Part shown: positions 45,064 through 62,729 of the stretch, one piece after another | How positions within the stretch are numbered: the stretch's first letter is position 1 | Layout: every line of letters begins with the position of its first letter | Assembly: GCA_903900155.1 (NCBI GenBank) | Contig: CAIUMD010000025.1 | Location: 22,458 to 86,457 of the forward strand | DNA length: 64,000 bases | Source: an uncultured Caulobacterales bacterium | Lineage (GTDB): Bacteria; Pseudomonadota; Alphaproteobacteria; Caulobacterales; Caulobacteraceae | Reading direction: 5' to 3' | Made by a program: the position numbers and the translations under genes | Notes under the pieces: model-generated | Seen by the model: only the letters and a program-made list of their open reading frames with translations | What the model was told of the DNA's origin: nothing | The model's database searches: none

Positions 45064-45068
45064 AGCCG

Positions 45069-45593
45069 ATGCGCGACATGATGGTCATCGTCGAGCCTGT
45101 CATCCCGCGTCTGCGGCGCTACGCGCGCGCGCTGATGCGGGATGCGGCGCTGGCCGATGATCTCGTGCAGGACTGCCTTGAACGGGCGATCACCCGCTGG
45201 CATCAGCGGCGAAGCGACGGCGACGCCCAGACCTGGCTTTTCACCATCCTGCACAACCTGGCCAGCAACCAGAGACGCCAGTGGGCCAGACGAGGCCCCC
45301 ATGTGCCGATCGACGAGATTTCACAGGACGGTCTGGCCAGCCCAGCCGAGCAGGAAGCCGGCCTCGAGCAGACCGCGGTTCTGGCGGCTCTGGATCGGCT
45401 GCCGGAGGATCAGCGCGCGGTTGTGCTCCTGATCAGCATCGAGGACCTCAGCTACGCCGAAGCCGCGCGCGTGCTTGGCGTGCCGGTCGGCACCGTCATG
45501 TCGCGGCTTTCGCGCGCCCGGCAAAGGCTTCGGGAAGACCTGGCCGGCCAGGTCGCGCCCTCGGCGCCCCCGCATCTCAGGAGGATCAAGTGA
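45069..45593 (+). CDS. ECF (group IV) sigma-70 family sigma factor
   Basis: 175 aa from the ATG at 45069. Region 2 DLVQDCLERA...WLFTILHN, region 4 LSYAEAARVLGVPVGTVMSRLSRAR. Confidence 0.9.
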   Translation: MRDMMVIVEPVIPRLRRYARALMRDAALADDLVQDCLERAITRWHQRRSDGDAQTWLFTILHNLASNQRRQWARRGPHVPIDEISQDGLASPAEQEAGLEQTAVLAALDRLPEDQRAVVLLISIEDLSYAEAARVLGVPVGTVMSRLSRARQRLREDLAGQVAPSAPPHLRRIK

Positions 45594-46378
45594 CGACCGG
45601 TCGACCGATCACCGAGGATGACCTGCAGGCCTATGTCGACGACGCGCTCGATCACCGTCGCCGCGTCGAGATCGAACAATGGTTGTCGTCTCACCCCGAA
45701 ACGGCTCAACGCCTGACGCACGACATCGCGATCAGGGGACAGCTGAGAGCCGCCCTCGCCCCAATCGCCGACGAGCCAACACCCGCCGAGCTCAACCTCG
45801 ACCGGCTGATCGAGCGCCATGGCCGTCCCATCGCCCGGCGCCGTGTCTGGTCCGCCCAGCTCGCGGCCGCCGTGGCGCTCGCCATCATTGGGACCGGCGC
45901 GGGCTGGGTTTTGCGCGGCGCAAGCCAGCCCAAGGACTACGGCGTCGTCGCCCTGACGCGGGAGGCGGTCGACAGCTACGCGGTGTTCGCGCCCGACACC
46001 GGTCGCCCCGTCGAGATCTCCGCTTCGGACGCGCCCCAGTTCATCGATTGGGCGTCGCGTCGCCTGGACCGTCCGGTGTCGATCCCGGACCTGTCGCCCT
46101 CGGGCTTCACGTTCATCGGCGGCCGGGTCGTGCCGACGTCCCACGGCCCCGCGGCGCTCTATCTCTTCGACAACGGCAAAGGGACCCGCCTGGCGCTGCT
46201 GACCCGAAACATGGCCCGCGACCAGAACGCGCCGATGTCGTCGTCGGACCGCGGCGCGGTCAACGCCATGACCTGGGCTGTCGATGGTCTGGGCTACAGC
46301 CTGGTGGGCCCACTCAAGCCGTCGACCTTGAGGCCGATCGCGAACGAGGCCCGAGCGCAATTCAGCGCCAGCATCTAG
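45590..46378 (+). CDS. Transmembrane anti-sigma factor
   Basis: GTG at 45590 overlaps the sigma stop (GTGA). N-terminal anti-sigma domain ITEDDLQAYVDDALD, one TM segment (LAAAVALAIIGTGAGWVL), and a periplasmic C-terminal domain of about 150 aa. Confidence 0.75.
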   Translation: MTTGRPITEDDLQAYVDDALDHRRRVEIEQWLSSHPETAQRLTHDIAIRGQLRAALAPIADEPTPAELNLDRLIERHGRPIARRRVWSAQLAAAVALAIIGTGAGWVLRGASQPKDYGVVALTREAVDSYAVFAPDTGRPVEISASDAPQFIDWASRRLDRPVSIPDLSPSGFTFIGGRVVPTSHGPAALYLFDNGKGTRLALLTRNMARDQNAPMSSSDRGAVNAMTWAVDGLGYSLVGPLKPSTLRPIANEARAQFSASI

Positions 46379-46480: not shown

Positions 46481-46720
46481 TCAGCGTGAAAGCACCTTCA
46501 ATTCTCCCTGAATCGCACTGCCATCCGTAATCCGCCAGCGCGCGCACTTTTCCCGCGCGCGATCAAGGGTTGCGCGCTTGACGGGGATCCCTTTGCGGAA
46601 CTTGTTCCATGTCGTCTCGCTGATGCCCAGCACATCGAAGAGATACCGATCGGTGATGGCGGGAAGGCTTTCGCGCAGACGATCGAATTCCTCACGCGAA
46701 ATCGTGACCATCTCGACCAT
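46481..46720 (-). CDS. Hypothetical small protein with HTH-like segment
   Basis: 79 aa. LFDVLGISETTWNKFRKG resembles an XRE/Cro-type helix-turn-helix. It sits in a lower-GC noncoding stretch. Weak support. Confidence 0.4.
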   Translation of the reverse strand: MVEMVTISREEFDRLRESLPAITDRYLFDVLGISETTWNKFRKGIPVKRATLDRAREKCARWRITDGSAIQGELKVLSR

Positions 46721-46760: not shown

Positions 46761-46793
46761 GCTCCGCCTTCGCGGGGAGAACGAAGGCGGAGC
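46761..46793 (-). terminator. Strong stem-loop 3' of the second ADC-like gene
   Basis: 12-bp stem gctccgccttcg/cgaaggcggagc with a 9-nt loop. A second 8-bp hairpin (gggacagg...cctgtccc) follows at about 46798-46836. No T-run. Confidence 0.45.
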
Positions 46794-46889: not shown

Positions 46890-47729
46890 TCAGGCGGCCG
46901 GCAACGCCTTGCGAACAGTCTCGAACTCCGTACCGTAGGATCGCGTGAACGCCATGTCCTGGAAGATGCAGCCTTCGACCGTGATGTCCTTGAGCAGGGT
47001 GGATGGCCACCCCTTGCCGGGCCCCGCCGGAGCGCGCTCGATCGGGATCGATCCGAAACTCAGGGTCCCCGTTCCGTGGATCGGACGGGAGAAATCGGTG
47101 TCGTCGAAGGTCAGGGACAACAGGTCCGCGCCGGGCTCGCCGCCGACGTACATCCCGGTGTAGGGCGCGTCCTCCACGCGTTTCACGCCATCCAGCACGC
47201 CCTGGAAACTCAACAGCGAAAAGCCGTACTGCTGGACGTCGAGATGGAACGGCACCGGCGAGCCCTCCGCCACCAACTTGCGGTCCTGCTCGAACATGTA
47301 GGTCATTTCGGCGTCGGCCCATCGCTTGACGCCGACCAGGGTCGAGCCGATCCCCCAGGGGAGGCTTTCCCACATCAGGATATTGCGCTGGCGCGGACCG
47401 AACTTTGGCGTGGTGGCCATGGTCGATATGCCGATCTGCAGGCCGCTGGCGTGAGGCCCCGCAGGCGGATAGCCCTTCGACGTTCCTCCCTTTTTACGCT
47501 GGGCCTTGATGAAGGCGCGGTGCGGATTCACGGCGGTCAGTCCCGGCGGCATGAAGGCGTTCAGGTCGGTCGAGGTCGTGAACATGATGTTCATCGTCTC
47601 CCCATACTCGCCAGGAACCTTCAGAGGGACCGCGTCCGAGGCCGGAGCCCGGTCCGCCGGGATCTGCGCCGAAGCGCGCGCGGCCGCGAGGCCGAAGACT
47701 CCGCCCAGGATGAGATCACGTCGCTGCAT
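46890..47729 (-). CDS. Tat-signal protein, acetoacetate-decarboxylase-family-like (paralogue 2)
   Basis: 279 aa. MQRRDLILGGVFGLAAARASAQ twin-arginine signal. The block order resembles the ADC beta-cone family (tentative). About 60-65% identical to the upstream ORF by hand alignment. Confidence 0.6.
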   Translation of the reverse strand: MQRRDLILGGVFGLAAARASAQIPADRAPASDAVPLKVPGEYGETMNIMFTTSTDLNAFMPPGLTAVNPHRAFIKAQRKKGGTSKGYPPAGPHASGLQIGISTMATTPKFGPRQRNILMWESLPWGIGSTLVGVKRWADAEMTYMFEQDRKLVAEGSPVPFHLDVQQYGFSLLSFQGVLDGVKRVEDAPYTGMYVGGEPGADLLSLTFDDTDFSRPIHGTGTLSFGSIPIERAPAGPGKGWPSTLLKDITVEGCIFQDMAFTRSYGTEFETVRKALPAA

Positions 47730-47849
47730 GATGGTCGCTCGCCTGTCCTTGCGTGTTTTCAGAAGCCCGAAGGCAGACTACGTCGTGGCGGCCTGACCGC
47801 ACGGCTTGCGCGGCCCATGACCGCCTGGCGGACGAACAGCCCCCCGCCC

Positions 47850-48701
47850 TCACAGCCGTGAACGCCCGTTGCCCGGCAGAGCCTTGCGCACGGTCTTCAT
47901 CTCGCCGCCGTATGTCCGGGTGAACGAGAAGTCCTGGAAGACGCATCCTTCGACGTGGATGTCTTTCAGCAGCGAGGCCGACCAGCCCTTGCCAGGTCCG
48001 GGGGGCCCTCGATCGGCCGGATTATCGCCAAAGCTCAGCGTTCCGGAGCCGTACACCGGATGGGAAAACTCGGAGGCGTCCAGGGTCAGGGCCGTGAGAT
48101 CCTGACCAGGATCGCCGCCCACGTAGAAGCCCGGATAGGCCGGATGCTCAACCCGCTTCACCCCGTCGAGCGCGCCGGCGAAGCTCATCAGCGAATGACC
48201 GTCCTGCTCGACGGTGATGTAGATCGGAACCGGCGTGCCCTGCGCGACGAGCTTGTGGTCCAGCTCGAAGACCTGCGTCATCTCCACCTTGCCCCATCGC
48301 TTGACGGCGAGCAGCGTCGAGCCGACCGCCCAGGCGCGATTTTCCCACATCAGGATGTTGCGATGGCGCGGCCCGAACTCCGGCGTGGTGGCCATGGTGG
48401 TGATGCAGATCTGATCGTACTGGGCGAAGGCCGCCGGCATCTGATCAGCCTCCGGCGAGCGCAGCTTTACGCGCTCGGCCTTGATGAAGGCGCGATGAGG
48501 ATCCACGGCCGTCAGCCCCGGCGGCATGAAGGCGTTCAGGTCCGTCGACGTGGTGAACAGGATCTCCATCGTCTGACCGTAGTTGCTCGGGATGTAGGGC
48601 TTGGACGCCTTGGCTGGAGCGCCGGCGTAGGCGTTCTGAGCCGCAGCGCCGGCCGCGGCGAGACCGAGCGCGCCGCCCAGAACCAGATCGCGTCTATTCA
48701 T
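47850..48701 (-). CDS. Tat-signal protein, acetoacetate-decarboxylase-family-like (paralogue 1)
   Basis: 283 aa. MNRRDLVLGGALGLAAAGAAAQ signal. Shares FTTSTDLNAFMPPGLTAV.PHRAFIKA, TMATTP.FGPR.RNILMWE and GTLSFG...GPGKGW..LLKDI.VEGC.FQD with the downstream paralogue. Confidence 0.6.
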   Translation of the reverse strand: MNRRDLVLGGALGLAAAGAAAQNAYAGAPAKASKPYIPSNYGQTMEILFTTSTDLNAFMPPGLTAVDPHRAFIKAERVKLRSPEADQMPAAFAQYDQICITTMATTPEFGPRHRNILMWENRAWAVGSTLLAVKRWGKVEMTQVFELDHKLVAQGTPVPIYITVEQDGHSLMSFAGALDGVKRVEHPAYPGFYVGGDPGQDLTALTLDASEFSHPVYGSGTLSFGDNPADRGPPGPGKGWSASLLKDIHVEGCVFQDFSFTRTYGGEMKTVRKALPGNGRSRL

Positions 48702-48746
48702 GGTGCTTACTCGCCTGTGCTTGAGATAAAATGGGTCCGGACCCGA

Positions 48747-50015
48747 CTAGGCCTCGACGGCCGAGGACGACGCCAGTGAACCCGGGATCGAAGGCGTCGC
48801 GGGCCAGACAGGACGCCAGGCCAGCGACGCGAACAGCGCCGCGCCGCCGGCGAACAGCACCGCGCCTCCCCAAAGGGCTGGCTGATAGGCGCCGGTCCGG
48901 TCGTAGATCGCGCCCATGATCGGCGCGCCCAATCCATTGCCCAGGCTGAACATGGCGAAGAGGCAGCCATAGATCTGGCCATAGGCTCGCAGTCCGAAAT
49001 GACGCGCGGCGAAATAGGACAGGAAGTCGATCTCGGCGCCGGCGGCTAGGCCCAGGAGCAGCACCGCGACGGTCAGCGCCGCGCGATCGGCGCCGCAGGT
49101 CGCCAGGATCACCGCGGCCGCCACGGGCGCGATCAGGGTCAGCCCCGCCACCAGCGCGGGCGGGAAACGATCGAGCAGCGCCCCGACCACGATCCGGCTC
49201 ACGAAGACGGCCAGACCCATCGTTCCGGCGATCCCCGCCGCCTGCGCGGGGGCCAGTCCCCGGTCGGTGAGCATGGGGACTAGGTGGATGATGGTCCCGC
49301 TCTGCGCGGTGATCAAAAGCAGGACCCCGATCGCCAAGGTCCAGAAGGCGCCGGTGCGAAGCGCCTCGGCCAAGGTCAGGCCCGACAGCGCCAATTTCGG
49401 GCCTTCGCCGCCATGTTTCGGCGCGCGCCCTAGCAGCAGGATGACCGCCGGGAAGACAACCAGGGCGGAAAATCCCGCTATGCCCAGATAACCGGCGCTC
49501 CATCCCCGGTGCGTGATCAGCCACTGAACCGCCGGCACGCCGACGACGCCGGCCGTCGCGCTTCCCAGCAGCGTCAGGCCCAGCGCCAGGCCGCGGGCCT
49601 TGACGAACCGCTGGCTAACCGCGCGGGTCCAGCTGACGGGCGCGGTCGCGCATCCCAGCACGGCCACGCCCAGGCATCCGGCATAGAAGGTCCAGACGTC
49701 CGGCCCGACCCGCGACATCAGGACGAAAGCGAGCGCCGCCCCGATCAGCGACGGACCCGCCACGCGCCGCACGCCCCACCGATCGATCATCCACCCGACC
49801 AGGGGCGCGCACACGACGGTGCCCAAGGTGATGAAGCTCATCCCCAGCGTAATCTCGCCCCGCGTCCATCCGAACGCGGCGTTCAGAGGCTTCACGAACA
49901 GGCCGAAGGTATAGAAAGCCAAGCCCGTGAGACCGGCGCAGGCGCCGAGCGCGCTGGCTAGGATCGTCGTCCAACCCGATCGAAATTCGCTGCTGGCGGT
50001 CGTCATCAAACGCAT
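48747..50015 (-). CDS. MFS transporter
   Basis: 422 aa with about 12 hydrophobic segments. It lies 45 bp upstream of the ADC-like pair on the same strand. Confidence 0.88.
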   Translation of the reverse strand: MRLMTTASSEFRSGWTTILASALGACAGLTGLAFYTFGLFVKPLNAAFGWTRGEITLGMSFITLGTVVCAPLVGWMIDRWGVRRVAGPSLIGAALAFVLMSRVGPDVWTFYAGCLGVAVLGCATAPVSWTRAVSQRFVKARGLALGLTLLGSATAGVVGVPAVQWLITHRGWSAGYLGIAGFSALVVFPAVILLLGRAPKHGGEGPKLALSGLTLAEALRTGAFWTLAIGVLLLITAQSGTIIHLVPMLTDRGLAPAQAAGIAGTMGLAVFVSRIVVGALLDRFPPALVAGLTLIAPVAAAVILATCGADRAALTVAVLLLGLAAGAEIDFLSYFAARHFGLRAYGQIYGCLFAMFSLGNGLGAPIMGAIYDRTGAYQPALWGGAVLFAGGAALFASLAWRPVWPATPSIPGSLASSSAVEA

Positions 50016-50236
50016 CTCCGAAGGCGACGAATGATCGCCCGTTCACTGACGCTCCATTCCGGCGCCGCAACGGCACTTTGGGGGAGTGTTTTCTGGTTTT
50101 GATCACCTTGCGGATAAAAGCTTCGCCTCAATCGACATCCCGCACGCCTGCGAGCGACGGGATGTCCGACGCCGCTCAAATGTCGGGCATCCGGTCTCCC
50201 GTTCCCCATAGAGGGGGCAGCTTGCACCCTAAGTTG

Positions 50237-50254
50237 TTGACAGGGTTACGTAAC
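50237..50254 (+). promoter_or_regulatory. TTGACA -35-like hexamer immediately followed by the 10-bp perfect palindrome GTTACGTAAC
   Basis: ttgaca (50237-50242) and gttacgtaac (50245-50254) read directly. They lie about 50 nt upstream of the IclR-family start, in the divergent MFS/IclR intergenic region. Confidence 0.35.
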
Positions 50255-50304
50255 ACCGCGTTCGATGACTCACGCGAAGTCGATTTTTCTCATGGGGTGA
50301 CGAC

Positions 50305-51129
50305 ATGGAGAGAGGTGTTCCGATCCGCTCGGTCAGCCGTAGCTTGGCGGTTCTTCAGGTCATCAACGCAGCCGGCTCGATGTCGCTGATGGAGATCGCG
50401 CGGGCCGTGAAGGTGCCCTACGCGACCGCGGCGCGTCTTGTGCTCACCCTGCTGCATGAAGGGATGATCGAGAAGGAGCCCGGCCGGAAGAACTACCGGC
50501 CGACCATGCTCGTGCAATCCCTGGCCAGCGGCTACAATGACCATAGCCACTTGGGCGCGGTCGCCCGCCAGCACATCGTGGACCTGACCAACAAACATGG
50601 CTGGCCGGTGGCGGTTTCGACCCGGTTCGGCATGAACATGATCGTGCGCGAATGTACGCACACGCTCTCGCCCTACACCTTGTCGACCTACTATCCGGGC
50701 TTCGTCTATCCCCTCCTGCAGTCCGCCGCCGGCCTTGTCCACCTGGCCTTCTCCAGTGAGCGTGAGCGGGACCTGAGCCTGCTGGATCTGACGGCTTCGG
50801 GCGATCATGACCGCACGGCGCTGGGCGCCTCGGAGGCCGCCTTGGAGGACATCCGCGCCAAGGGCTACGCCACGCGCGGGCGCAACCGCTTCACGGTGCC
50901 CGAGGGCAAGAACTCGGCGATCGCGGCGCCGATCTTCCACCAGGGCCGCCTGTGCGGCACGCTGGCCCTCATCTTCCTGGCGTCGGCGACGCGGATGGAC
51001 AAGGCCGTCGAGCTCTGCGCGCAGGACGTCGTCGACACGGCCCGCGCCGTCAGCCAGGACCTCGATCGCCTCGATGCGAACGCAGGCCGGCGCGGCCCCT
51101 TCGAGGAGAACATCCGCGCCGTCGGCTAG
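50305..51129 (+). CDS. IclR family transcriptional regulator
   Basis: 274 aa. N-terminal wHTH SVSRSLAVLQVINAAGSMSLMEIARAVKVPYATAARLVLTL and a C-terminal effector domain. Confidence 0.88.
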   Translation: MERGVPIRSVSRSLAVLQVINAAGSMSLMEIARAVKVPYATAARLVLTLLHEGMIEKEPGRKNYRPTMLVQSLASGYNDHSHLGAVARQHIVDLTNKHGWPVAVSTRFGMNMIVRECTHTLSPYTLSTYYPGFVYPLLQSAAGLVHLAFSSERERDLSLLDLTASGDHDRTALGASEAALEDIRAKGYATRGRNRFTVPEGKNSAIAAPIFHQGRLCGTLALIFLASATRMDKAVELCAQDVVDTARAVSQDLDRLDANAGRRGPFEENIRAVG

Positions 51130-51162: not shown

Positions 51163-52092
51163 CTATGCGTCCCCGGCGGCCTTTTTCCAGGCGTCCGCGA
51201 TCTGGCTTGCGGTGGCCGACCAGACCCCAGCATCCGCGCCCAGGGCGCCGAGCGCCCCGCGCAGGGCCCAGATGCGGAAAGGCTGCCCCGAGACATAGGG
51301 CGTCAGGCTGAAGCCCAGCACCTGTCCCCCGAAACGGGGCGCCTCTTCCTTGGTGAACCGCATGGCTTCCAGAATCTGATCGGCCCATTCGGCTTCGGTC
51401 TGACGCCGGTCGCTCAGCAGGACCCGGTCGTCCAGCTCCGTCGACAACGGTACGGCGATCACTTCGCGCGAAGCGGTCTTCATCGGCACGGGCAGGCTGT
51501 CCTGCTCCCAGTCCAGGCAGACGTCGAAACCGGCTTCGGCGATCAAGTCGAGCGTTTCGAACGACTGTTGTCGCGCGGGGCTCATCCAGGTGCGCGGCGT
51601 CAAGCCGGCCTTGTCGAAGGCCGTCCGCGTCTGCTCGACCCATTGGCGCTCGACGCCGGCGTCCAGGCCCGACCAGTGGATGTGATCGGTGTCGACGCCA
51701 TAGGCGGCGATCTCGTGCCCGTCCTCGATCAGCGCCTCGATCAAAGGCCGCACGCGCTCCAGCAGGACCGCGTTGATCGGAACGGTCGCCTTCAGACCCG
51801 CCGCCTTTAGTTCGCGCAGGATGCGGAAGATCCCGACACGGTTGCCGTAGTCCCGCGTCGTGAAATGACGCAGGTCCGGATAGGGCGTCACCATGGCGCC
51901 GGGATGCTTGAAGGGCTTGCCCGCCGGATTGAGCATATGGAACTCGAGCGGCGTGACGATCAGACAGGCTGCGGCCGCCCGTCCCGGCCAGGCGATCGGC
52001 GCGCGTTCACACGACGACCGCCAGGGATAGCGCGGCTGGTCGGCGCCGTAGGCGCGATGCGGATAGGCCAGGTATTCGTCAGGAACCGGCAT
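51163..52092 (-). CDS. Polysaccharide deacetylase-fold hydrolase (PuuE/allantoinase-like)
   Basis: The ATG at 52092 (MPVPDEYLAYPHRAYG...) overlaps the upstream gene by 14 bp; TTG at 52119 is an alternative. ...RDYGNRVGIFRIL... resembles the PuuE-like family. Confidence 0.8.
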   Translation of the reverse strand: MPVPDEYLAYPHRAYGADQPRYPWRSSCERAPIAWPGRAAAACLIVTPLEFHMLNPAGKPFKHPGAMVTPYPDLRHFTTRDYGNRVGIFRILRELKAAGLKATVPINAVLLERVRPLIEALIEDGHEIAAYGVDTDHIHWSGLDAGVERQWVEQTRTAFDKAGLTPRTWMSPARQQSFETLDLIAEAGFDVCLDWEQDSLPVPMKTASREVIAVPLSTELDDRVLLSDRRQTEAEWADQILEAMRFTKEEAPRFGGQVLGFSLTPYVSGQPFRIWALRGALGALGADAGVWSATASQIADAWKKAAGDA

Positions 52093-53041
52093 GGGCGGCC
52101 TCGGTTGATGTGAACCCAAAGCCGCCGGTGGCGAGGCCGCGGGCGGCCACGTCGTCGAGGGTCTGGTCGAAAAACTGCTCGCGGTAGACTCCGGCGATCT
52201 CCGAGGCCGTGGTGATCCACACGTCGTCGCTGTTCTCGGAGATGTACTTCAGCGCCTCGGCGAACGGGCCCAGGCGATGCGGCTGGCTGACCAGGTACGC
52301 ATGCAGCGGAATGCACATGACCACGCCGCTCTGCTGACTTTCCTCGAGCAGTTGATCGAAGTGCCGCTTCAGCACGTCGGCGTAGCGCTGCGGCGCCATG
52401 GCCAGCGAGCCGTAGGTGATCACGTCATTGACCTCGAGCGAATAGGGCATCGAGATCAGCTTCCCGGTCCGGGTCTTCACCGGCTGGGGCTGGTCGTCCT
52501 GAAAGAGGTCGCAGGTGTACCAGAAATCGTACTCCGCCAGCAGGTCCAGGGTGCGTTCGGTATGGGTCAGGGCCGGCGCCAGATAGCCTCGGATGCGCTG
52601 GCCGGTGGCCGATTGGATCGAGCGGATCGAATCCTCGATGATCGCCCGCTCCTGGGCCTCGTCCATGTTGTACGAGTAGCGCGTGTTGTAGATGCCGTGG
52701 GAGAAGAACTCCCAATCGCGCGCGACGCACGCCTCGATGATCTCTGGATGATGGTCGATCAAAGCCGTCGACAGCGAGATCGAACCGCGCATGCCGTATT
52801 TGTCCATCAACTCCATCAGCCGCCAATGTCCGACGCGGTTTCCCCAGTCGCGCTGGGAGTAGCCGACGACGTCGGGGGACGGCCGAGGCCAGCCCGGACG
52901 CGAGACGTTCCTGGGCGGATCGAATTCATAGAACTCGATATTGGGCGCGATCCAGAACGCCAGCTTCTTGCCGCCCGGCCAAACGATGGGCGGACGGTCC
53001 TTGTAGGGCCAATAATCGTAAAGGTTGGGATCGGCGAGCAT
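52079..53041 (-). CDS. Polysaccharide deacetylase-fold hydrolase (PuuE/allantoinase-like), second copy
   Basis: 320 aa. ...RPPIVWPGGKKLAFWIAPNIEFYE...RDWGNRVGHWRLMELMD.... Paralogous to the downstream gene. Confidence 0.8.
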   Translation of the reverse strand: MLADPNLYDYWPYKDRPPIVWPGGKKLAFWIAPNIEFYEFDPPRNVSRPGWPRPSPDVVGYSQRDWGNRVGHWRLMELMDKYGMRGSISLSTALIDHHPEIIEACVARDWEFFSHGIYNTRYSYNMDEAQERAIIEDSIRSIQSATGQRIRGYLAPALTHTERTLDLLAEYDFWYTCDLFQDDQPQPVKTRTGKLISMPYSLEVNDVITYGSLAMAPQRYADVLKRHFDQLLEESQQSGVVMCIPLHAYLVSQPHRLGPFAEALKYISENSDDVWITTASEIAGVYREQFFDQTLDDVAARGLATGGFGFTSTEAAHAGS

Positions 53042-53917
53042 CTATTGCGCGGCCTCTAGCGTAGGTGAAAAACGTTGCCCCTGGCGGACGATGTCGTCCA
53101 AGCCGATGCGCGCGTTCACGCCCCTCAGGTCCGTCATCGGTCCGGCGAACGCGGCCGTCGAGCCGGTGGCCTTCAGCGTCGCCAGCAGCGCCTCCAGGTG
53201 TGGGACCAGGGCGCGAACGAGCGCGCCGGGCGTGATGACCAGCGCAAAGCCCAGGGCCGTGAGGTCTTCGGCCGTGCGGATCGGCGTCGAGCCCCCCTCG
53301 ACCATGTTGGCCAGAAGCGGAATCCGCTTGCTGAATTGGACCGCGACCTGGCGCATCTGCGCCTCGGACTGCGGCGCCTCGACGAACAGCACGTCGGCGC
53401 CGGCTTCGCGGTAGAGCTCCGCCCGCGCCAGGGCGGCCTCGAAGCCCTCCACGGCGATGGCGTCGGTGCGGGCGACGATCAGGGTTTCCGACGACAGACG
53501 GGCGTCGACGGCGGCCTTGATCTTGCCGACCATGACCTCAGCCGGTTCGACAGTCTTGCCCAGTAGGTGGCCGCAGCGCTTGGGCGAGGTCTGATCCTCG
53601 AGCTGGATGGCGTTCGCCCCTGCACGCTCCAGGACGCGCACCGTCCGCTGCACGTTCAGGGCGTTGCCGAAGCCGGTGTCTGCGTCAACGATGAGCTTGA
53701 GGCCCACGCGATCCCGGATGCGCGCGGTCACGTCGGCGACCTGCTCCAGGCCCAGCAGGCCGATGTCGGGCCGCCCCAGCTGGGTGTAGGCGATCGAGGC
53801 GCCGGATAGAAAGGCCGCCTCGAACCCGGCCTGCTCGACCAGCAGCGCCGTCAGCGGGTCGTAGACGCCCGGCGCGACAAGGGCGGGGCCCGTACTCAGG
53901 CGGTGCTTCAAACTCAT
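53042..53917 (-). CDS. Isocitrate lyase / PEP mutase superfamily lyase (methylisocitrate-lyase / dimethylmalate-lyase-like)
   Basis: 291 aa. Signature IQLEDQTSPKRCGHLLGK (K-R-C-G-H), ...DADTGFGN.... Its stop abuts the next gene's start. Confidence 0.85.
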   Translation of the reverse strand: MSLKHRLSTGPALVAPGVYDPLTALLVEQAGFEAAFLSGASIAYTQLGRPDIGLLGLEQVADVTARIRDRVGLKLIVDADTGFGNALNVQRTVRVLERAGANAIQLEDQTSPKRCGHLLGKTVEPAEVMVGKIKAAVDARLSSETLIVARTDAIAVEGFEAALARAELYREAGADVLFVEAPQSEAQMRQVAVQFSKRIPLLANMVEGGSTPIRTAEDLTALGFALVITPGALVRALVPHLEALLATLKATGSTAAFAGPMTDLRGVNARIGLDDIVRQGQRFSPTLEAAQ

Positions 53918-54405
53918 GCTCGGGTCCCGTTGAAACGGCGCTTCAGATGCTCGGTCAGCCCGCCATCGCGGATTACCGCCAACAGGTGCGGCGGGAGCGC
54001 TTGGAAGGCGTAGGCGCGGCCTTGCGTGCGATTGTCCGCCCGCCCCTGTTCGAGATCGAAGCCGATCTCGTCGCCGGCCGCGATCTCGCCGGCCTCGGGC
54101 AGCACCAGCGCCGGCAGGCCGATATTGATGGCGTTGCGATAGAAGATGCGCGCGAACGACTGGGCGAAGACCGCCGCCACGCCCAGCAGCTTCAGCGAGA
54201 TCGCCGCCTGCTCGCGAGACGACCCCATGCCGAAGTTCGCCCCCGCGACGACGATGTCCCCTCGCCTCACCACGGAAGCAAACTGAGGATCGACGGCCTC
54301 AAGGCAGAAGCGCGCCATCTCGCGAGGCTCCAGCTTCATGGCGTGCCCCGGCGCCAGCAGATCCGTGTCGATATTGTCACCGAAGACGAAGGCCCGCCCC
54401 ATCAT
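53914..54405 (-). CDS. Aconitase-family hydratase small subunit (LeuD type 2-like)
   Basis: 163 aa. GDNIDTD and GANFGMGSSREQA motifs. 4-bp overlaps on both sides. Confidence 0.85.
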   Translation of the reverse strand: MMGRAFVFGDNIDTDLLAPGHAMKLEPREMARFCLEAVDPQFASVVRRGDIVVAGANFGMGSSREQAAISLKLLGVAAVFAQSFARIFYRNAINIGLPALVLPEAGEIAAGDEIGFDLEQGRADNRTQGRAYAFQALPPHLLAVIRDGGLTEHLKRRFNGTRA

Positions 54406-55691
54406 CGCGCTCCTTGCGTCATCAGCAGACGAGGATCGACGATGGATCCGGCCACAGCGGCGGCGGCGACCGAATAGGGCGATCCCAGATAGACCTGGGC
54501 CTCCCCGCTTCCCATCCGCCCCTTGAAATTGCGGTTGGTCGAGGAGATGCAGATCTCACCGTCCGCGAGAACGCCGCCGCCATAGCCAGCGCAGGCCCCG
54601 CATCCGGAAGGCATCATCAAGGCGCCTGCGGTGATCAGGTCGCTCAGGACGCCTTCACGCGAGGCCGTCTCGAAAGTCTCCCGCGACGCGGGCGCGATCA
54701 GCAACCGCACGCCGGGCGCCACCTTGCGACCGCGCAGGACTTCGGCCGCCATGCGCAGGTCGTCGACCTTGGCCCCCATGCAGGCCCCGATATAGGCCTG
54801 GTCGATCCTGACGCCCGAATAGTCGCCGACCGGGCCGGTGTTGCCGGGCGAGTGCGGCGCCGCGATCTGCGGTCCCAGGTCCTCAGCCCGAAACCGCCAG
54901 ACCCGCTCGAACACGGCGTCCGGGTCAGAGGCCAGGGCCCGCGCGGCGCTTTCGTTCTCGACCGGACGCCCCACCCTGGCCAGATAGTTGAAGGTCACCG
55001 CGTCGGGCGCGACCACGCCGGTCTCGGCGCCCAACTCGGCGGCCATGTTGCACAGCACCATGCGGGCGTGCATCGACATCGCTTCCACGGCGTCGCCGGC
55101 GAATTCCACGGCGCGGAAGCCGTTGTCCATCCCGACCTCGCGGGTCAGGTGCAGCATGACATCCTTGGCGACCACGAAGGGCGCGAAGGCGCCGGACCAT
55201 TCGATACGGATCGTCGAGGGAACCGACAGCCAAGTCTCGCCCGTCGCCACGATGGCCGCCATGTCCGTGGCCCCGTAGCCGGCGGCGTAGGCGCCGAACG
55301 CGCCGGCCATCGGCGTGTGACTGTCGCCGCCCGCGATGAACGCCCCAGGCCGGATCAGGCCGGCGTCGGGCAGCACCAAATGGCTGATGCCGACCATATC
55401 GAACAGGTTCTCAATGCCCTGTTCGCGAGCGAAATCGCGGGTGAGCTTCAGGAAACCAGCCGTCTCGGCGTCGGCGGCCGGCGCATAGTGGTCGTTGACC
55501 AGGGCGACCTTGTCGGGATCCCAGACCCCTACCCCCAGCGCGTCGAGGATCGGCTTCCACCGCCTGGCCCCGGAGGAGTCGTGGGCGAAGGCCAGGTCCA
55601 CCTTGGCGACGACCAGCTGCCCAGGCGTCACGCCAGGCAGGCCAGCCGCGCGGGCGATCACCTTCTCCACCAATGTCGCGCCGCGTGTCAT
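54402..55691 (-). CDS. Aconitase-family hydratase large subunit (LeuC type 2-like)
   Basis: ATG at 55691 after GGAAGG. About 429 aa. Fe-S cysteine regions IGACMGA and MPSGCGACAG. Confidence 0.85.
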   Translation of the reverse strand: MTRGATLVEKVIARAAGLPGVTPGQLVVAKVDLAFAHDSSGARRWKPILDALGVGVWDPDKVALVNDHYAPAADAETAGFLKLTRDFAREQGIENLFDMVGISHLVLPDAGLIRPGAFIAGGDSHTPMAGAFGAYAAGYGATDMAAIVATGETWLSVPSTIRIEWSGAFAPFVVAKDVMLHLTREVGMDNGFRAVEFAGDAVEAMSMHARMVLCNMAAELGAETGVVAPDAVTFNYLARVGRPVENESAARALASDPDAVFERVWRFRAEDLGPQIAAPHSPGNTGPVGDYSGVRIDQAYIGACMGAKVDDLRMAAEVLRGRKVAPGVRLLIAPASRETFETASREGVLSDLITAGALMMPSGCGACAGYGGGVLADGEICISSTNRNFKGRMGSGEAQVYLGSPYSVAAAAVAGSIVDPRLLMTQGAR

Positions 55692-55754: not shown

Positions 55755-56450
55755 TCAGCGCCGTTCGAGCCAGTCGATGACGTCCTGGGCCGTGACCACG
55801 TCCGCGTACTTGAGCTGGAGGTCGGTGAGGTTGGCGTAGTGATAGCTCTCATGCTTGTCGGCGACGCATTCCTCGGGAACGATCGTGCGATAGCCGTGCG
55901 AAAGGCTGTCGACGCCGCTGGCGCGGATACAGCCGGACGTCGAGCCGCCGGTGAGCACCACGGTGTCGATCTTGTGCCAGGTGAGATAGCTGGGCAGCGG
56001 CGTCTCGAAGAACACCGACGGCATGCGCTTGGTGAACACTAGGTCGACCGCGTGGTCGATCTCGACGCGCGGATCGAAGGCGTGGCGCTCGCTGTCGTAC
56101 TTGATGTTCTGCAGGCTGTCGGGCGTGTCGGTGCGCGCGCCCCAGACGCCCGCGTCGCCGCCGTCGGCCTTGTAGGCGACCCGAGTCCAGATCACGGGCA
56201 TGCCCTTGCTGCGCGCCAGGGCCGACAATTGGTTGGTGAACGCGATCTGCCGCGGATCGGTGACGTAGGCGCTCTTTGGAAAGAGGTCCGGCCGCGTGTA
56301 GGCCTGCTGGAAGTCGATATTGACGATGGCCAGCTTCTGGCCAAATCCGAACCGGGCGCGCGCGGGATTGGCCTTGACCGCCTCATAGAGTTCGCGAGCG
56401 GTCTTGTTCTCCCGGACCATGGTCGGCTCGAATTTCAGGTCTGTCGTCAC
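55755..56450 (-). CDS. Isochorismatase-family amidohydrolase (carbamoylsarcosine/maleamate amidase-like)
   Basis: GTG at 56450 with GGAG 6 nt upstream. ...LAIVNIDFQ... (Asp), catalytic Cys in LTGGSTSGCIRASGVDS. Confidence 0.85.
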   Translation of the reverse strand: MTTDLKFEPTMVRENKTARELYEAVKANPARARFGFGQKLAIVNIDFQQAYTRPDLFPKSAYVTDPRQIAFTNQLSALARSKGMPVIWTRVAYKADGGDAGVWGARTDTPDSLQNIKYDSERHAFDPRVEIDHAVDLVFTKRMPSVFFETPLPSYLTWHKIDTVVLTGGSTSGCIRASGVDSLSHGYRTIVPEECVADKHESYHYANLTDLQLKYADVVTAQDVIDWLERR

Positions 56451-56570: not shown

Positions 56571-57665
56571 TCAATGACCGGGCGGGGATTTCCGACGAAG
56601 GAAGGCCTGAGCCCTGAGGTCGGCGTTTTCGCGAACGTCCTCATAGAACAGGCCGACGTCATGCATGTGCATGCTGCCGTTCATGTGAGGGCTGGACGCC
56701 GTCAGCGGTTTGAGACCGAGCGCCGCCGAGGGCTCAACAGTGAGCACCCCGTCTTCGCAGCGCGCGCTCACCGCATGGGGAACGATCGCCTGCATGGGGC
56801 CGGCGTCGGGCGCGCCCGGAACAGCGCCCTTGGCGACGCTCGACGACGCGGCGGGGCGAGACCGGTCGAACGTCAGCGGATTGATGCAGAGCAGCGCCTT
56901 GCCGGCGTTGTCGCCCCAGCGCTGGATATAGCTCCTCTGGCTGAAGGCGGCGAAATCCGAGCGGTCGCCGATCGGCAGCATGGAGTTCCACTGCACGACG
57001 CAGCCGGTCTGGCTGGGCGTGTCGCAGATCTTCACCGACTTGAAGGTGCGGCCGAAATCGCCCTCGGTCAGACCCATGCCGATGACATAGGCGGCCACCA
57101 GGCGCTTCTGCAGCGGCGTGCCGTCGATACGGTCCTCGAGCAGCTTCCTGACGTGATACGCGCCCTGGCTATGGCCGACCAGAATGAACGGTCGCCCCCC
57201 GTTGTCGTGCGCCAGATAGTGGTCAAAGGCGGCCAGAACGTCCTTGTAGGCGAAGTCGATGGCCACCTGCCGCGCAGCGGGATCGCCAGGTCCGGCCGCC
57301 GCCTGGCGATAGCGTGGCGCGTAGATCCGGCAACAGCGATTGAAAGCGCCGGCCTGTCTGGCGACGACGCTGCCGTCGGTCCAGGCCTGAAGCTTCGGAT
57401 CGAAGACCTCTCCCGTGGCGTGTTCGCGGCTGAAGTCGGTCGTCGGATGGACGTAGAAGACGTCCGCCTGCCGCAACTCCCGCCGGGGCGAGGCCCCGGG
57501 CGCCACGACAGCCGCCGCGCTCTCGGCCCGCGCCGTCGCGGCCCAGTTGGCGGGATCCTTGTAGTCGAGCGCTGACTGCGCCGTCGCGACCGTCGGCGCA
57601 ACGATCGAGAACACCGCCCCGATCGCCGCCAGCCCGCGCCAAGGAGTGGGGTTCATCGTGTTCAT
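56571..57665 (-). CDS. Secreted alpha/beta hydrolase, DUF3089-like (lipase/esterase-type)
   Basis: 364 aa. Signal peptide ...VAPTVATAQS, nucleophile elbow VGHSQGA. The family assignment comes from overall pattern and is moderate. Confidence 0.7.
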   Translation of the reverse strand: MNTMNPTPWRGLAAIGAVFSIVAPTVATAQSALDYKDPANWAATARAESAAAVVAPGASPRRELRQADVFYVHPTTDFSREHATGEVFDPKLQAWTDGSVVARQAGAFNRCCRIYAPRYRQAAAGPGDPAARQVAIDFAYKDVLAAFDHYLAHDNGGRPFILVGHSQGAYHVRKLLEDRIDGTPLQKRLVAAYVIGMGLTEGDFGRTFKSVKICDTPSQTGCVVQWNSMLPIGDRSDFAAFSQRSYIQRWGDNAGKALLCINPLTFDRSRPAASSSVAKGAVPGAPDAGPMQAIVPHAVSARCEDGVLTVEPSAALGLKPLTASSPHMNGSMHMHDVGLFYEDVRENADLRAQAFLRRKSPPGH

Positions 57666-57740
57666 TCCAAGCTTTCCCTTAGCGCGGCTTCGCGGAGGCT
57701 TTCGCTCCTCCGGCCGCCAGACGGAGGAGCGCTGCCCTGG

Positions 57741-60170
57741 CTAGTAGGCCGTGTGGAAGCGCACACCGATGCGGCGGGGCGTCGGCAACACCGCCGCGAC
57801 GATCGGCCGGTTGTTGTTGGCCTGATCGAAGGCCGGCGAGGTGCTGAGATATGCGCGATTGTCGAACAGGTTCTCGACGAAGAACTCGACCTTCGACTGC
57901 TCGTACTGCGCGCCGATCCGCAGGTTCACGCGCTTGGTGTCCGGCGTCTTGTAGAGGTTGGCCGGCTCGCCGTACTGACCGCTCTTGTAGAAGGCGTCCG
58001 CATGGAAATAGCCGTCCACCTTGGCGCTGAGCTGACGCGTGTAGTCCATGCTGATGTTGGCGCTATACTTGGAGCCGTAGGCCAACTGGTTGCCCTTGAA
58101 CAGGTCGAGCGGCGCCGTCCCAGGCGCATAGCCCAACAAGGTCGCGCTGTTGGTGTTGGTGTATTTGAGAATCTTGGTGTCGTTGATCGAACCGCCGCCG
58201 CTAAAGGTCAGGGATGGCGAGACGCGAAGATAGAGATTGCCTTCGACGCCCTTCAGGTCGGTGGCGCCGTTGTTGCTATACATGTTGGTCGCCAGCGTGC
58301 CGGGAATGCCGGTCAGCGCCGGGTTGACGATGAACAGGCTCTGCAGAATCAGCTGGTCGCGCCACTGAGCGTAATAGGCGCCGATGTCGAGCTGCAGACG
58401 CCCGTTGAACAGTTCGCCCTTATAGCCGACGTCGTAGCTGGTGATACGCTCGGGCCGCGTCCCGACCCCGCCGTCGAGCGTCGAGCTGAGATAGTTCTGC
58501 AGCGCGGGCGAATAGCTCACATAGGCGGTATTGAAGAGGCCGGGATTGGAGCCCTTGGCGAAGGTCGCGAAGACCTGATGGTGCGGGGCGAACTTGTACT
58601 GGATGATCGCCCGGGGCAGGAATTCCTTGGTCTTGTCCTTGAGGCCGGCGATCGGCGCTTCAACGGGTTCGTTCGAGGCGTCGAGCTTGCGGCTGTAGCC
58701 GATGGTCGTGGAGTCCTGGTAGCGGACTTCGGCGTTCAGAATGATCTGGGACGTCAGGTCGAAACTGGCGCTGGCGAAGGCCGCGTAGGTGTTGTTGCGA
58801 TAGGTCGGACCGGTCGGCGAGACCGTGAAGACGTAGCTCGGAGCGGAGATGCCCATGCCGGTGTAGCCCCGGCGGGAATATGAATAGTTCACCCCGACGA
58901 CGCCGCGCAGCCGCTTGGACTGATCGCTGGAGACGCGGAACTCCTGGTTGAAGGCCATGCCATAGCCGTAGACATCGTTGGGCTGGCGCAGCGCCGGCGC
59001 GGTGCCGGGATTGGAGTTGTCGGTGATGACGTCGACACGGGAGTCGTTGGCCGCCGTCACCGAGCTGAAGGTCAGCCCCGTGTCCGGCATGGCGTAGCTA
59101 ATGTTCAGCGTGCCGACCCGAACCTCCGTGGCCGAGCCCCCGTGATCCAGGCCCAGGTCCTTGTAGCGGACCCCCGCCGCGGGTGAGTGAAGCGAGTCGA
59201 GGAAGGACTTCGGCAGAGGATCGGGATTGGGACTGTTGGGATAGGCCAACGGCAGGGTGCCGCAGATCAGCCGGGTCGCCGGGGATGGGCTGCAGTTGAA
59301 GGTCGACGCCGGGAATTTGACGAAGGACTGGTAGCCGTCGTCCATCTTCACATAGGCGCCGAACGCACGGACGGTCAGGTCTTCGGTCGGGGTGAACGCC
59401 AGCTCGCCAAGAACATTCTTCGAAGACTGGGCGCCGTACTTGTAGCCCGGCGAAAGCGGCGAACTGTAGTAGCCGTCCGTATCGTAGACGCGGCCGGTGA
59501 TACGGCCCGAGAGCTTTCCGGGGATGATCGGTCCTTCGACCGTCGCCTTAAGGTCGGTCCAGTTGTTGGAGCCATAGAGCGCGTCCACCGACACCTTGAA
59601 CTCGTCGCCCGGCGCCTTGGTGATGATGTTCACCGCGCCGCCAAAGGTCGCGCGGCCGAAATAGGCGCTCTGCGGCCCCTTGATGATTTCGACCTGGGCC
59701 ACGTCGGAAATGCCGTCGATCAGGCCCGAGGCGGCCAGCGGCGCGCCGTTGATGAAGACCGTGGTGGTCTGGCTATAGGTGGAGCCGGGCACCATCCCGC
59801 GAATGATGACGGTCTGCTGGGCGCGGTTCGTCGTGCTGTTGCCGAAGCTCGTGATGTTCAGCGACGGGGTGTAGTTGGCGACGGCGATCAGGCTGTCGAC
59901 GCCCTTCTTCTCCATCGAGGCTGCGGACATGGCGGTGATGGCCAGCGGCACGTCCAGCAGGGTTTCGGATCGCTTGCGGGCGGTCACGACGATTTCCGAC
60001 ATGTCCGTCGCGCCCGAATTGACCGACTGGCCGGAGTTGTCCGCGGGCGCGGCCTGTGTGGGCGCCGTTTGGGCCAGAGCCGTTTCGGGCGAAGCGGCCA
60101 TCAAGGCGACGAACATCACCGCCGGAGCAGCTGAACAGAACAGTCCTTGACGCTTGGAACGCGAATGCAT
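57741..60170 (-). CDS. TonB-dependent receptor
   Basis: The ATG at 60170 gives MHSRSKRQGLFCSAAPAVMFVALMAASPETALAQ. Plug SEIVVTARKR...IIKGPQSAYFGRATFGGAVN. C-terminal ...RRIGVRFHTAY. Confidence 0.9.
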   Translation of the reverse strand: MHSRSKRQGLFCSAAPAVMFVALMAASPETALAQTAPTQAAPADNSGQSVNSGATDMSEIVVTARKRSETLLDVPLAITAMSAASMEKKGVDSLIAVANYTPSLNITSFGNSTTNRAQQTVIIRGMVPGSTYSQTTTVFINGAPLAASGLIDGISDVAQVEIIKGPQSAYFGRATFGGAVNIITKAPGDEFKVSVDALYGSNNWTDLKATVEGPIIPGKLSGRITGRVYDTDGYYSSPLSPGYKYGAQSSKNVLGELAFTPTEDLTVRAFGAYVKMDDGYQSFVKFPASTFNCSPSPATRLICGTLPLAYPNSPNPDPLPKSFLDSLHSPAAGVRYKDLGLDHGGSATEVRVGTLNISYAMPDTGLTFSSVTAANDSRVDVITDNSNPGTAPALRQPNDVYGYGMAFNQEFRVSSDQSKRLRGVVGVNYSYSRRGYTGMGISAPSYVFTVSPTGPTYRNNTYAAFASASFDLTSQIILNAEVRYQDSTTIGYSRKLDASNEPVEAPIAGLKDKTKEFLPRAIIQYKFAPHHQVFATFAKGSNPGLFNTAYVSYSPALQNYLSSTLDGGVGTRPERITSYDVGYKGELFNGRLQLDIGAYYAQWRDQLILQSLFIVNPALTGIPGTLATNMYSNNGATDLKGVEGNLYLRVSPSLTFSGGGSINDTKILKYTNTNSATLLGYAPGTAPLDLFKGNQLAYGSKYSANISMDYTRQLSAKVDGYFHADAFYKSGQYGEPANLYKTPDTKRVNLRIGAQYEQSKVEFFVENLFDNRAYLSTSPAFDQANNNRPIVAAVLPTPRRIGVRFHTAY

Positions 60171-60432
60171 GGTGACGACCCCCTCAGTGTGTCTCGAGAA
60201 AGCAATGGGTGACGCCGCCGGGCAGTCACAAAAACAACATCCCGACAAACGAGGAGCCGTGGTCACGGAATAGCGCCGCCCACCGCACAGCGGTTAAATG
60301 CCGCTTGGAGGCCGCTGGCGAAGACGCCACAGCAACGCCCCGGCGCCCGCGCGGGCGGCTCCAGGCGCGCAGATGCACTCAAAACGATCAGCAGATGCCG
60401 ATCACCGCACACTCGCATATGAGCTGTAGTTG

Positions 60433-62629: not shown

Positions 62630-62673
62630 GTCGGCGGTTCCAGATTTGACGCCGGTTCATTTGCCTCAACTCG

Positions 62674-62712
62674 TTTAATCTGATCAAATAAGATATTTGG
62701 ATATTTTAATCT
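62674..62712. promoter_or_regulatory. AT-rich divergent promoter region with direct repeat TTTAATCT x2
   Basis: tttaatct occurs at 62674-62681 and 62705-62712, with starts 31 bp apart. The csiD-LysR intergenic region is only 100 bp. Confidence 0.3.
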
Positions 62713-62729
62713 AATAGAGTGATCATAAC

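Follow-up and report, generated by a model that had tools for sequence, protein, structure and literature searches.

A putative exported pair of divergent acetoacetate decarboxylase-like proteins encoded as an ordered two-gene cassette in an uncultured Caulobacterales bacterium

A stretch of 64,000 nucleotides from an uncultured Caulobacterales bacterium (assembly GCA_903900155.1, contig CAIUMD010000025.1, positions 22,458 to 86,457; the whole stretch is referred to here as the window) carries two adjacent minus-strand genes whose products, of 283 and 279 residues, resemble one another closely and both begin with a twin-arginine motif. An earlier note on this DNA, made from its letters alone, had proposed that the two proteins are paralogues with the beta-cone fold of acetoacetate decarboxylase (ADC), that both are exported by the twin-arginine translocation (Tat) pathway, and that their genes are linked to those for a major facilitator superfamily (MFS) transporter and an IclR-type regulator. 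We refer to the 283-residue protein as alpha and to the 279-residue protein as beta, as putative subunits of a single enzyme. The features of the locus are listed below, with clades named as in the tree described later in the text.

46890..47729, minus strand: putative beta subunit gene (279 aa; clade A), predicted to share alpha's fold and carrying a twin-arginine signal of its own
47325-47327, minus strand: codon AAG of the beta VKRW lysine, K135 in beta numbering
47667..47729, minus strand: beta signal-peptide coding part (residues 1 to ~21, MQRRDLILGGVFGLAAARASA), with the RRDLI motif and AxA sites
47730..47780, minus strand: conserved leader before beta, TAGTCTGCC...AGGCGAGCGACCATC, from an alignment of 19 gene starts at 6 loci
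Alpha-beta spacer, 120 nt: contains the conserved leader of beta
47850..48701, minus strand: putative alpha subunit gene (283 aa; clade B), predicted ADC-like beta-cone with an N-terminal twin-arginine signal
48300-48302 and 48411-48413, minus strand: codons AAG of alpha K134 and CAG of alpha Q97, read off the DNA
48624..48701, minus strand: alpha signal-peptide coding part (residues 1 to ~26, MNRRDLVLGGALGLAAAGAAAQNAYA), with RRDLV at residue 3 and several AxA sites, disordered in the model
48702..48746, minus strand: MFS-alpha spacer, 45 nt, holding a more diverged copy of the leader (AAGCACAGGCGAGTAAGCACC)
48747..50015, minus strand: MFS transporter gene (PF07690, E = 7e-33), first in the MFS-alpha-beta transcription unit
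50016..50304: divergent IclR-MFS control region, 289 bp, with the blocks TGTCAAT, GACATTTGAGCG and CTTTTATCCGCA conserved across loci
50305..51129, plus strand: IclR-family regulator gene (HTH_IclR 4.8e-10, IclR_C 4.8e-6), divergent from MFS-alpha-beta

The identity of the two proteins, put at about 60-65% in the earlier note by hand alignment, was measured with BLASTP at 62% (75% positives) over 277 residues, a similarity far beyond chance (E = 6e-116), and all of the identical blocks that it had listed between the paralogues were found. The immediate layout was likewise as it had described, both in the map of open reading frames (ORFs) and by Pfam: the MFS gene ends with its stop codon 45 bp ahead of the alpha ATG on the same strand, and the IclR gene is divergent from it. 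No terminator-like site was seen between MFS and alpha, and a promoter and terminator scan between the genes gave nothing useful. The IclR protein scores above the cut-offs of both PF09339 and PF01614. For the MFS gene, the best NCBIfam matches, none of which reached its equivalog cut-off, were the L-lactate MFS transporter SfMCT (1.6e-30) and the oxalate/formate antiporter family; its product is predicted to be a transporter of the oxalate/formate or monocarboxylate type.

Direct sequence searches with the pair gave almost nothing. Pfam and NCBIfam returned no family for either paralogue even at E <= 1, so that the direct scan against the ADC family (PF06314) suggested in the earlier note was empty, and a sequence search of the PDB gave a chance match only (E = 0.3). 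A large protein database contained just 52 relatives with identities of 50% or more; these were either unnamed or labelled 'hypothetical', and no Pfam domain was found in any of them. When 1.84 billion representative proteins were searched exhaustively with a profile, only 31 matches were obtained. Since direct searches were empty, assignment of the fold required structure prediction and profile bridging. Structural models generated using AlphaFold 2 reached a mean predicted local distance difference test score (pLDDT) of 85 and a predicted template-modelling score (pTM) of 0.82 for alpha, with residues 1-32 disordered, and 85.2 and 0.81 for beta, with residues 1-33 disordered. When these models were compared with the PDB using Foldseek, which amounts to the structural comparison that the earlier note had called for, each matched the same 24 chains at E <= 1e-3, all 24 of them from the ADC superfamily (probability 1.00, template-modelling (TM) scores 0.6-0.7), and the next match was noise (E > 5e-3). 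The matched chains comprise Swit_4259, MppR, Sbi00515, the Clostridium and Chromobacterium ADCs, and proteins from Legionella and Methanoculleus; the top matches of alpha were 5upb, 4jmd and 6eej at E ~1e-12, and the best E-value for beta was also ~1e-12.

The profile route led to the same superfamily. Among the distant profile matches, which are without the N-terminal extension, 20 were scanned, and 16 of these matched PF06314 at E <= 1e-3; the Pfam gathering score was exceeded by 13 of the 16, and the strongest matches had E-values of 4e-42, 5e-22 and 8.5e-22. A bridging profile built from the family together with its distant relatives then matched Sbi00515, MppR and Swit_4259 by sequence (E = 2e-8 to 2e-5). 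Models and profiles thus bear out the beta-cone proposal, and both proteins are predicted to have the ADC fold and to be divergent members of the ADC-like superfamily.

The lysine in the VKRW motif, which the earlier note had aligned with the Schiff-base lysine of ADC, does take that position in the bridging alignments: K134 lines up with the leading lysine of the GWPKK motif in clear PF06314 members, and the column of K134 (alpha) and K135 (beta) holds the first K of PKK or PKQ in Sbi00515, MppR, Swit_4259 and the Legionella ADC. We take the Schiff-base lysine to be K122 in Sbi00515 and K156 in MppR, numbers that also draw on the titles of PDB entries. In ADC, the Schiff base is formed by Lys115, next to which stands Lys116 (PMC11388336; PMC4520260). 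The aligned Glu and Lys of the Legionella chain are each offset by 11 from Glu76 and Lys115, and this common offset allows K134 to be equated with Lys115, R135 with Lys116 and Q97 with Glu76. Across 51 family members, K134 is conserved in 48, R135 in all 51, and position 97 is Gln in 48. K134 and Q97 are missing from the same three members, and this joint loss argues that both residues belong to one functional site. Every solved member that was aligned has Glu at the position of ADC Glu76, where this family has Gln. The signature of true acetoacetate decarboxylase (EC 4.1.1.4), to which Arg29 and a setting of solvent production or ketone-body metabolism also belong, is not seen here: K-R stands in place of K-K and Gln in place of Glu, and the neighbouring genes encode a transporter, a regulator and amide-degrading enzymes. 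The alignments point to a family of ADC-fold proteins with a variant Lys/Gln site, rather than to acetoacetate decarboxylase.

The aldolase-dehydratases Swit_4259 and Sbi00515 (5upb, 4zbo/4zbt/6eej) are among the best structural matches of the pair (E ~1e-12, TM 0.64-0.70); they share the Schiff-base lysine column, with PKK where the family has VKR, and the likeness extends to being cofactor-free. They differ in being single genes without a signal peptide, at 14-19% identity, and in keeping the Glu (YRE, YNE) that is Gln in the family. MppR of enduracididine biosynthesis (4jm3, 4jmc-e) is an equally good structural match, and its active-site lysine acts on a 2-oxo acid (PMC10367076); unlike alpha and beta, it is a cytoplasmic biosynthetic enzyme of an antibiotic cluster, which retains the Glu and is neither paired nor exported. 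The true ADCs of Clostridium and Chromobacterium (3bh2, 3bgt) have the beta-cone fold in common with the pair (E 1e-7 to 1e-10), together with Lys115 at the place of K134, but their Glu76 and Lys116 are replaced by Gln97 and Arg135, their structural similarity to the pair is weaker than that of the aldolase-dehydratases, the window has no solventogenesis context, and nothing points to acetoacetate as the substrate.

The N-termini of the two window proteins, MNRRDLVLGGALGLAAAGAAAQ and MQRRDLILGGVFGLAAARASAQ, start with MNRRDLVL in alpha and MQRRDLIL in beta, so that both carry the twin-arginine motif previously described for them, and the motif is followed by an uncharged, Gly/Ala-rich stretch of 25 residues in alpha and 12 in beta. 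The same arrangement recurs across the family: [RK]R-[DE]-[LM]-[IV] stands at residues 3-7 in 43 of the 51 members, with 12-31 uncharged residues and AxA sites after it, and R4 is invariant in all 46 members that have an N-terminus. We also considered a true start downstream of the twin-arginine motif, which the earlier note had named as a finding that would count against it, and rejected it: the next in-frame Met of alpha, M45, comes after the invariant G42 and inside the first beta-strand, so that a start there would truncate the fold, and conservation of the N-terminal block extends to 46 homologues. Export of alpha and beta is well supported by these N-termini.

A phylogenetic tree was built on the mature domains, and the family genes were mapped onto every fetched locus. 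The tree resolved a clade B, which includes the 283-residue protein, a B-like clade C with an insertion of ~16 residues, a clade A, which includes the 279-residue protein, a clade A2, and an outgroup of single-copy genes, some signal-bearing and some not. This analysis revealed that a B or C gene is followed by an A or A2 gene in 13 of 13 distinct cassettes at 9 loci, one of which has three cassettes in tandem. The distances among alphas and those among their beta partners are strongly correlated (r = 0.88, Mantel p ~5e-5). The two types are set apart by fixed differences at just two positions, 76 (Glu in alpha, Gln in beta) and 192 (Phe in alpha, Met in beta). A recent tandem duplication was rejected as the origin of the pair, since the two genes fall in different deep clades, each with orthologues of its own elsewhere. 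The pair appears to be an ancient, ordered alpha-beta cassette that has been evolving as a unit.

Signal and active site have been lost in complementary fashion within these cassettes. The alpha signals are intact in 24 of 24 cases (23 with RR and one with KR); of 21 beta signals, nine have RR, seven KR, and five are degenerate or absent. At locus L004, the loss of the beta signal was checked on the DNA, where the in-frame upstream sequence is hydrophilic junk, and the tree leads to an estimate of 3-4 independent beta signal losses. The catalytic lysine has been lost in 3 of 24 alphas and never in beta. The alphas concerned are C-type proteins of L001 (6309-7190) and of the P0036 and P0044 contigs, in which the lysine is replaced by Q, N or S and Gln97 is also lost, and their beta partners keep both residues; these three alphas may be non-catalytic pseudo-enzyme subunits.

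From these patterns we infer that alpha and beta form a heteromer, which would be assembled in the cytoplasm and exported folded by Tat. Export of a signal-less protein together with a signal-bearing partner is an established Tat mechanism, known as hitchhiking (PMC10924467; PMC4273604), and pre-assembly of a heteromer would explain the use of Tat by a cofactor-free protein. In the small and large subunits of NiFe hydrogenases and in PaoABC, the signal-less partner is exported bound to the twin-arginine partner (PMC10924467, PMC4273604); the likeness seen in the sequences here is that alpha always bears a signal and that the beta signal is lost in some genomes. Known hitchhikers are cofactor-containing redox enzymes with unrelated subunits, whereas alpha and beta are paralogues for which no cofactor is expected, and in most genomes, the window included, both of them still carry signals.

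The strict gene order of the 13 cassettes and their expansion by twos would be unexpected if alpha and beta were two independent exported ADC-like enzymes, each homo-oligomeric and with its own specificity, kept together by the relatedness of their compounds and involving neither a heteromer nor hitchhiking. Losses confined to the signal in beta and to the lysine in alpha fit such an arrangement poorly, and at L004 it would split the two enzymes between compartments, with a signal-less beta left behind by a signal-bearing alpha. That the solved ADC-superfamily entries each list one molecule, that the window proteins each have a complete signal, that arrays of up to six genes resemble specificity diversification and that tandem ADC-related genes occur in a phenol-degradation cluster of Saccharolobus (PMC7820114) speaks for independent enzymes; taking both sides together, we regard this explanation as unlikely. 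The Saccharolobus case, Sso1221/Sso1222 of S. solfataricus, does resemble the cassette in consisting of adjacent ADC-superfamily genes, proposed to encode aldolases, within a catabolic cluster (PMC7820114). It differs in being archaeal and recognisably of the ADC superfamily; neither an export signal nor evidence of an ordered two-subunit unit is mentioned for it.

For the Tat route specifically, the argument proceeds from the motif, from its unusual conservation and from the proposed heteromer. Curated Tat profiles run on the isolated N-termini all stayed below threshold (UCR_Fe-S_N TAT signal 0.013-0.11, formate_TAT 0.003-0.27, TAT_signal 1.5), and nearly all of the weak hidden Markov model matches were to Tat-signal regions of other families. 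An ordinary signal peptide of the general secretory (Sec) pathway or a membrane anchor, with two arginines by chance, would agree with the fact that no Tat model exceeded its cut-off (TAT_signal PF10518 reached just 9.4 bits), with the KR and even ER variants found in the family, and with the lack of need for a cofactor, the usual reason for Tat. We nevertheless judge it distinctly improbable. An R4 present in 46 of 46 members, within a conserved x-R-R-D-L-I-L-G-G block, is unusual for Sec among proteins that are 50-60% identical, and the RR block is conserved much more strongly than Sec export would call for; the h-region, rich in Gly and Ala, is only moderately hydrophobic; the weak profile matches fall almost entirely on Tat-signal regions; and a signal-less beta beside a signal-bearing alpha is sensible only for export of a folded complex.

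The genes of the family also share a leader. In the window, this reads AAGCACAGGCGAGTAAGCACC-ATG before alpha and AAGGACAGGCGAGCGACCATC-ATG before beta, with AAG[CG]ACAGGCGAG ahead of both ATGs. The earlier note had seen this match and had taken it as a sign that the duplication extends into the 5' leaders; the shared leader is indeed there before both ATGs, but as a mark of duplication it did not hold up. The 13-nt match is part of a longer leader of ~45-60 nt, roughly TAGTCTGCC..GAGCTTCGGATTTCACATTCAGCCATAGGCGAGCGACCATC, which lies upstream of nearly every alpha and beta gene at all loci (L001, L004, L010, L016 and L017, besides the window), in genomes whose proteins are only 50-60% identical, and is therefore not the trace of a recent duplication. 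GC content is 0.38-0.54 in the first 24 coding nucleotides versus 0.62-0.68 in the rest of each gene. We read the leader as a translation-start region, apparently kept open by selection, rather than as a regulatory RNA. A structured RNA or riboswitch was considered and rejected, RNAalifold giving -0.75 kcal/mol with four weak pairs and Rfam no match at E <= 1. We also rejected the idea that leader and signal codons are better conserved than the gene itself: the first 30 nt are 79% identical versus 81-83% for the best core blocks, and third-position identity is ordinary.

Beyond the IclR gene, the window continues with genes that recur around the cassette elsewhere.

51163..53041, minus strand: two overlapping PuuE-allantoinase-like genes (polysaccharide-deacetylase fold, PF01522), with no signal peptide noted
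53042..53917, minus strand: C-C lyase of the phosphoenolpyruvate (PEP)-mutase/isocitrate-lyase superfamily, PrpB-like (PF13714, 5.6e-45)
53914..55691, minus strand: Fe-S hydratase of the LeuCD/DmdAB type, small and large subunits (TIGR02087, 1.8e-53; NF001614, 3e-151)
55755..56450, minus strand: cysteine amidohydrolase of the isochorismatase family (PF00857; best PDB match N-carbamoylsarcosine amidohydrolase, 7e-28)
56571..60266, minus strand: head of the upstream operon, with a DUF3089 (alpha/beta-hydrolase-like) gene and a gene for a TonB-dependent outer-membrane receptor (PF11288, 7.6e-63; Plug; TonB_dep_Rec_b-barrel)

The two PuuE-like proteins matched the PuuE model TIGR03212 at 3e-32 and 6e-18, below its cut-off, and PuuE in the PDB (3cl6) at 3e-25, as well as 3s6o. 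3S6O shares 91% identity with a protein that is an imidase, and a member of the PuuE family is a proven cyclic imide hydrolase (PMC11424739); the two genes probably encode cyclic amide or imide hydrolases. They overlap by a few codons and are kept as a pair in every locus, which suggests a second paralogous two-subunit enzyme within the cluster. The PrpB-like lyase scored 266 bits against the prpB model TIGR02317 (cut-off 354), and its nearest PDB sequences are petal death protein, methylisocitrate lyases and 2,3-dimethylmalate lyase. As regards the hydratase, TIGR02087 describes the LeuD/DmdB family and NF001614 the large subunit of aconitase/isopropylmalate (IPM) dehydratase. The TonB-dependent receptor gene shows the host to possess both an outer membrane and a periplasm.

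A survey of gene neighbourhoods covered seven visible independent contexts. In all seven, the cassette is accompanied by an adjacent, divergent IclR gene, an isochorismatase gene, two PuuE-like genes and a LeuCD/aconitase-like hydratase, and in five of the seven by an MFS gene; of the linkage to both MFS and IclR suggested by the earlier note, the IclR part holds throughout and the MFS part fails in two contexts. The final module takes two forms, either the PrpB-like lyase (in the window and L017) or a family-III CoA-transferase with an HMG-CoA-lyase-like enzyme (in L018 and L019).

The IclR protein combines a helix-turn-helix with an effector domain and is divergently arranged in each of the seven contexts, as in IclR-regulated operons. 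Across loci, the IclR-MFS intergenic region conserves TGTCAAT, GACATTTGAGCG and CTTTTATCCGCA..GT.ATCAAA, and is probably a shared promoter and operator region; in 50016-50304, no clear palindrome could be defined for an IclR operator, the conserved blocks being all that stood out.

Taken together, these data lead us to consider it fairly probable that the two genes encode the alpha and beta subunits of a periplasm-exported, divergent ADC-like enzyme that would work as follows. Alpha and beta would fold and associate in the cytoplasm, and the folded complex would leave through Tat, with alpha as the obligatory signal carrier and beta as the obligatory catalytic subunit. The substrate would enter through the TonB-dependent receptor whose gene heads the neighbouring upstream operon, and its keto group, most likely part of a 2-oxo- or 3-oxo-acid moiety, would form an imine with the lysine in the periplasm; the closest structural relatives of the pair all use this lysine on 2-oxo acids. 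The alpha-beta enzyme would then carry out a lyase-type step, be it a retro-aldol or hydratase-aldolase reaction, a decarboxylation or ring chemistry, and the MFS transporter would import the carboxylate product. Within the cytoplasm, the route might run from a cyclic amide or imide via the half-amide, a substituted maleate and a substituted malate to pyruvate and a short acid or acyl-CoA. The IclR protein would control the MFS-alpha-beta unit. In its fullest form, which we put forward only tentatively and hold to be less probable than its core, this would be the first extracytoplasmic enzyme with the ADC fold: a cofactor-free, Tat-exported heteromer of paralogues with divided labour (alpha sometimes catalytically dead, beta sometimes without a signal) and a Lys/Gln site, whose periplasmic C-C or ring cleavage would open a hitherto undescribed catabolic route for an N-containing cyclic compound.

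We know of no MFS transporter that employs binding proteins. This, the retention of the Schiff-base lysine in 48 of 51 members, including every beta, and the fact that the closest structural relatives are all enzymes make it very improbable that the beta-cone serves here as a non-enzymatic periplasmic ligand-binding or carrier protein, which would pass substrate on to the MFS transporter or, in other loci, to periplasmic redox proteins encoded downstream, even though the catalytic glutamate has become Gln, some alphas are without the lysine, DUF2071 is another ADC-fold family without a catalytic lysine (PMC4520260), and the many invariant Arg, Lys and His residues could bind an anionic ligand.

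Several points weigh against the exported two-subunit enzyme. The heteromer is one that we infer from gene order, co-evolution and signal decay, and the co-evolution of the pair could simply reflect joint duplication; moreover, because the sequences share descent, the counts given above overstate the number of independent events. With curated Tat models all under threshold, and with complete signals on both window proteins, a Sec signal is possible for this particular pair. The fold has no direct Pfam, NCBIfam or PDB sequence match behind it for either protein, the link to PF06314 being transitive. With the ADC glutamate missing, the reaction may be unlike that of any characterised member, or the site may do no more than bind a ligand. 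The MFS transporter is not obligatory, since two of the seven contexts are without it, and the order of the steps, including the placing of the ADC-like step before uptake, is conjectural. All relatives come from metagenomes or metagenome-assembled genomes (MAGs), and none from a cultured strain.

The family comprises ~50 protein clusters and occurs at five loci among 185,579 species-representative genomes, mostly Caulobacteraceae MAGs together with one Sphingobium MAG that has a signal-less single-copy relative; a large metagenome collection added two further loci only. To our knowledge, and in all cases returned by our searches, characterised enzymes of the ADC superfamily are cytoplasmic, encoded by a single gene and built around a Lys/Glu site. 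The fold and lysine predicted for the pair are those of this known superfamily, and what appears to be new is the export signal, the obligatory two-gene architecture and the exchange of Glu for Gln. A literature search found no paper tying ADC-family proteins to Tat or to periplasmic export, in agreement with the earlier note's statement that a duplicated, Tat-exported ADC is undescribed.

If the proposal is right, the family extends the ADC fold to the periplasm, to a two-subunit architecture and to a Lys/Gln site. It would also represent an unusual kind of Tat substrate, cofactor-free and exported folded so that a paralogous heteromer can pre-assemble, and its genomes would capture stages at which the second signal peptide is weakened or lost, findings that would surprise specialists on the ADC superfamily and on Tat export alike. 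The conserved neighbourhood points to an undescribed degradation pathway in Caulobacteraceae-like bacteria of soil and water. Since the family is missed by Pfam and NCBIfam and its members are annotated only as 'hypothetical protein', a profile made from it would annotate these genes. The rarity of the family (5 of 185,579 species genomes) limits its significance.

A number of further features were observed around the cassettes and in the window. In five of the seven contexts (L001, L004, L016, L018 and L019), the cassettes are followed by genes for a PSCyt/PSD heme-type protein, an HXXSHH protein (DUF1552), a TPR protein, an unannotated protein and a Lipoprotein_15 protein, and L018 and L019 additionally have HiPIP, cytochrome c' and cytochrome b genes; the window lacks this block, whose composition suggests a periplasmic redox system and hints at further periplasmic chemistry. 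About 100 nt past the beta stop, at 46761-46793, lies a perfect 12-bp inverted repeat (GCTCCGCCTTCG / CGAAGGCGGAGC, 9-nt loop) with no T-run after it, which may serve the MFS-alpha-beta unit as a terminator that has no U-tract. Directly downstream of beta, a 79-aa ORF on the minus strand (46481-46720) has a helix-turn-helix-like sequence (DVLGISETTWNKFRKG) and no Pfam match; it is 75% identical to its counterpart in L017, compared with ~55% for the ADC-like proteins of the window and L017, and is perhaps a small regulator that has joined the module in this lineage. Past the module, genes on the plus strand (43244-46378) encode a DUF305 protein, a YNCE/lactonase-like beta-propeller, an extracytoplasmic function (ECF) sigma factor and a probable anti-sigma factor without a Pfam match. 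A single tRNA gene (12472-12544, minus strand) is the sole Rfam match in the window at the gathering threshold. Finally, 60471-63620 holds a separate module of a CsiD-family dioxygenase (PF08943, 8e-122), an FAD-dependent oxidoreductase and a divergent LysR gene, a layout typical of glutarate hydroxylation and L-2-hydroxyglutarate oxidation.

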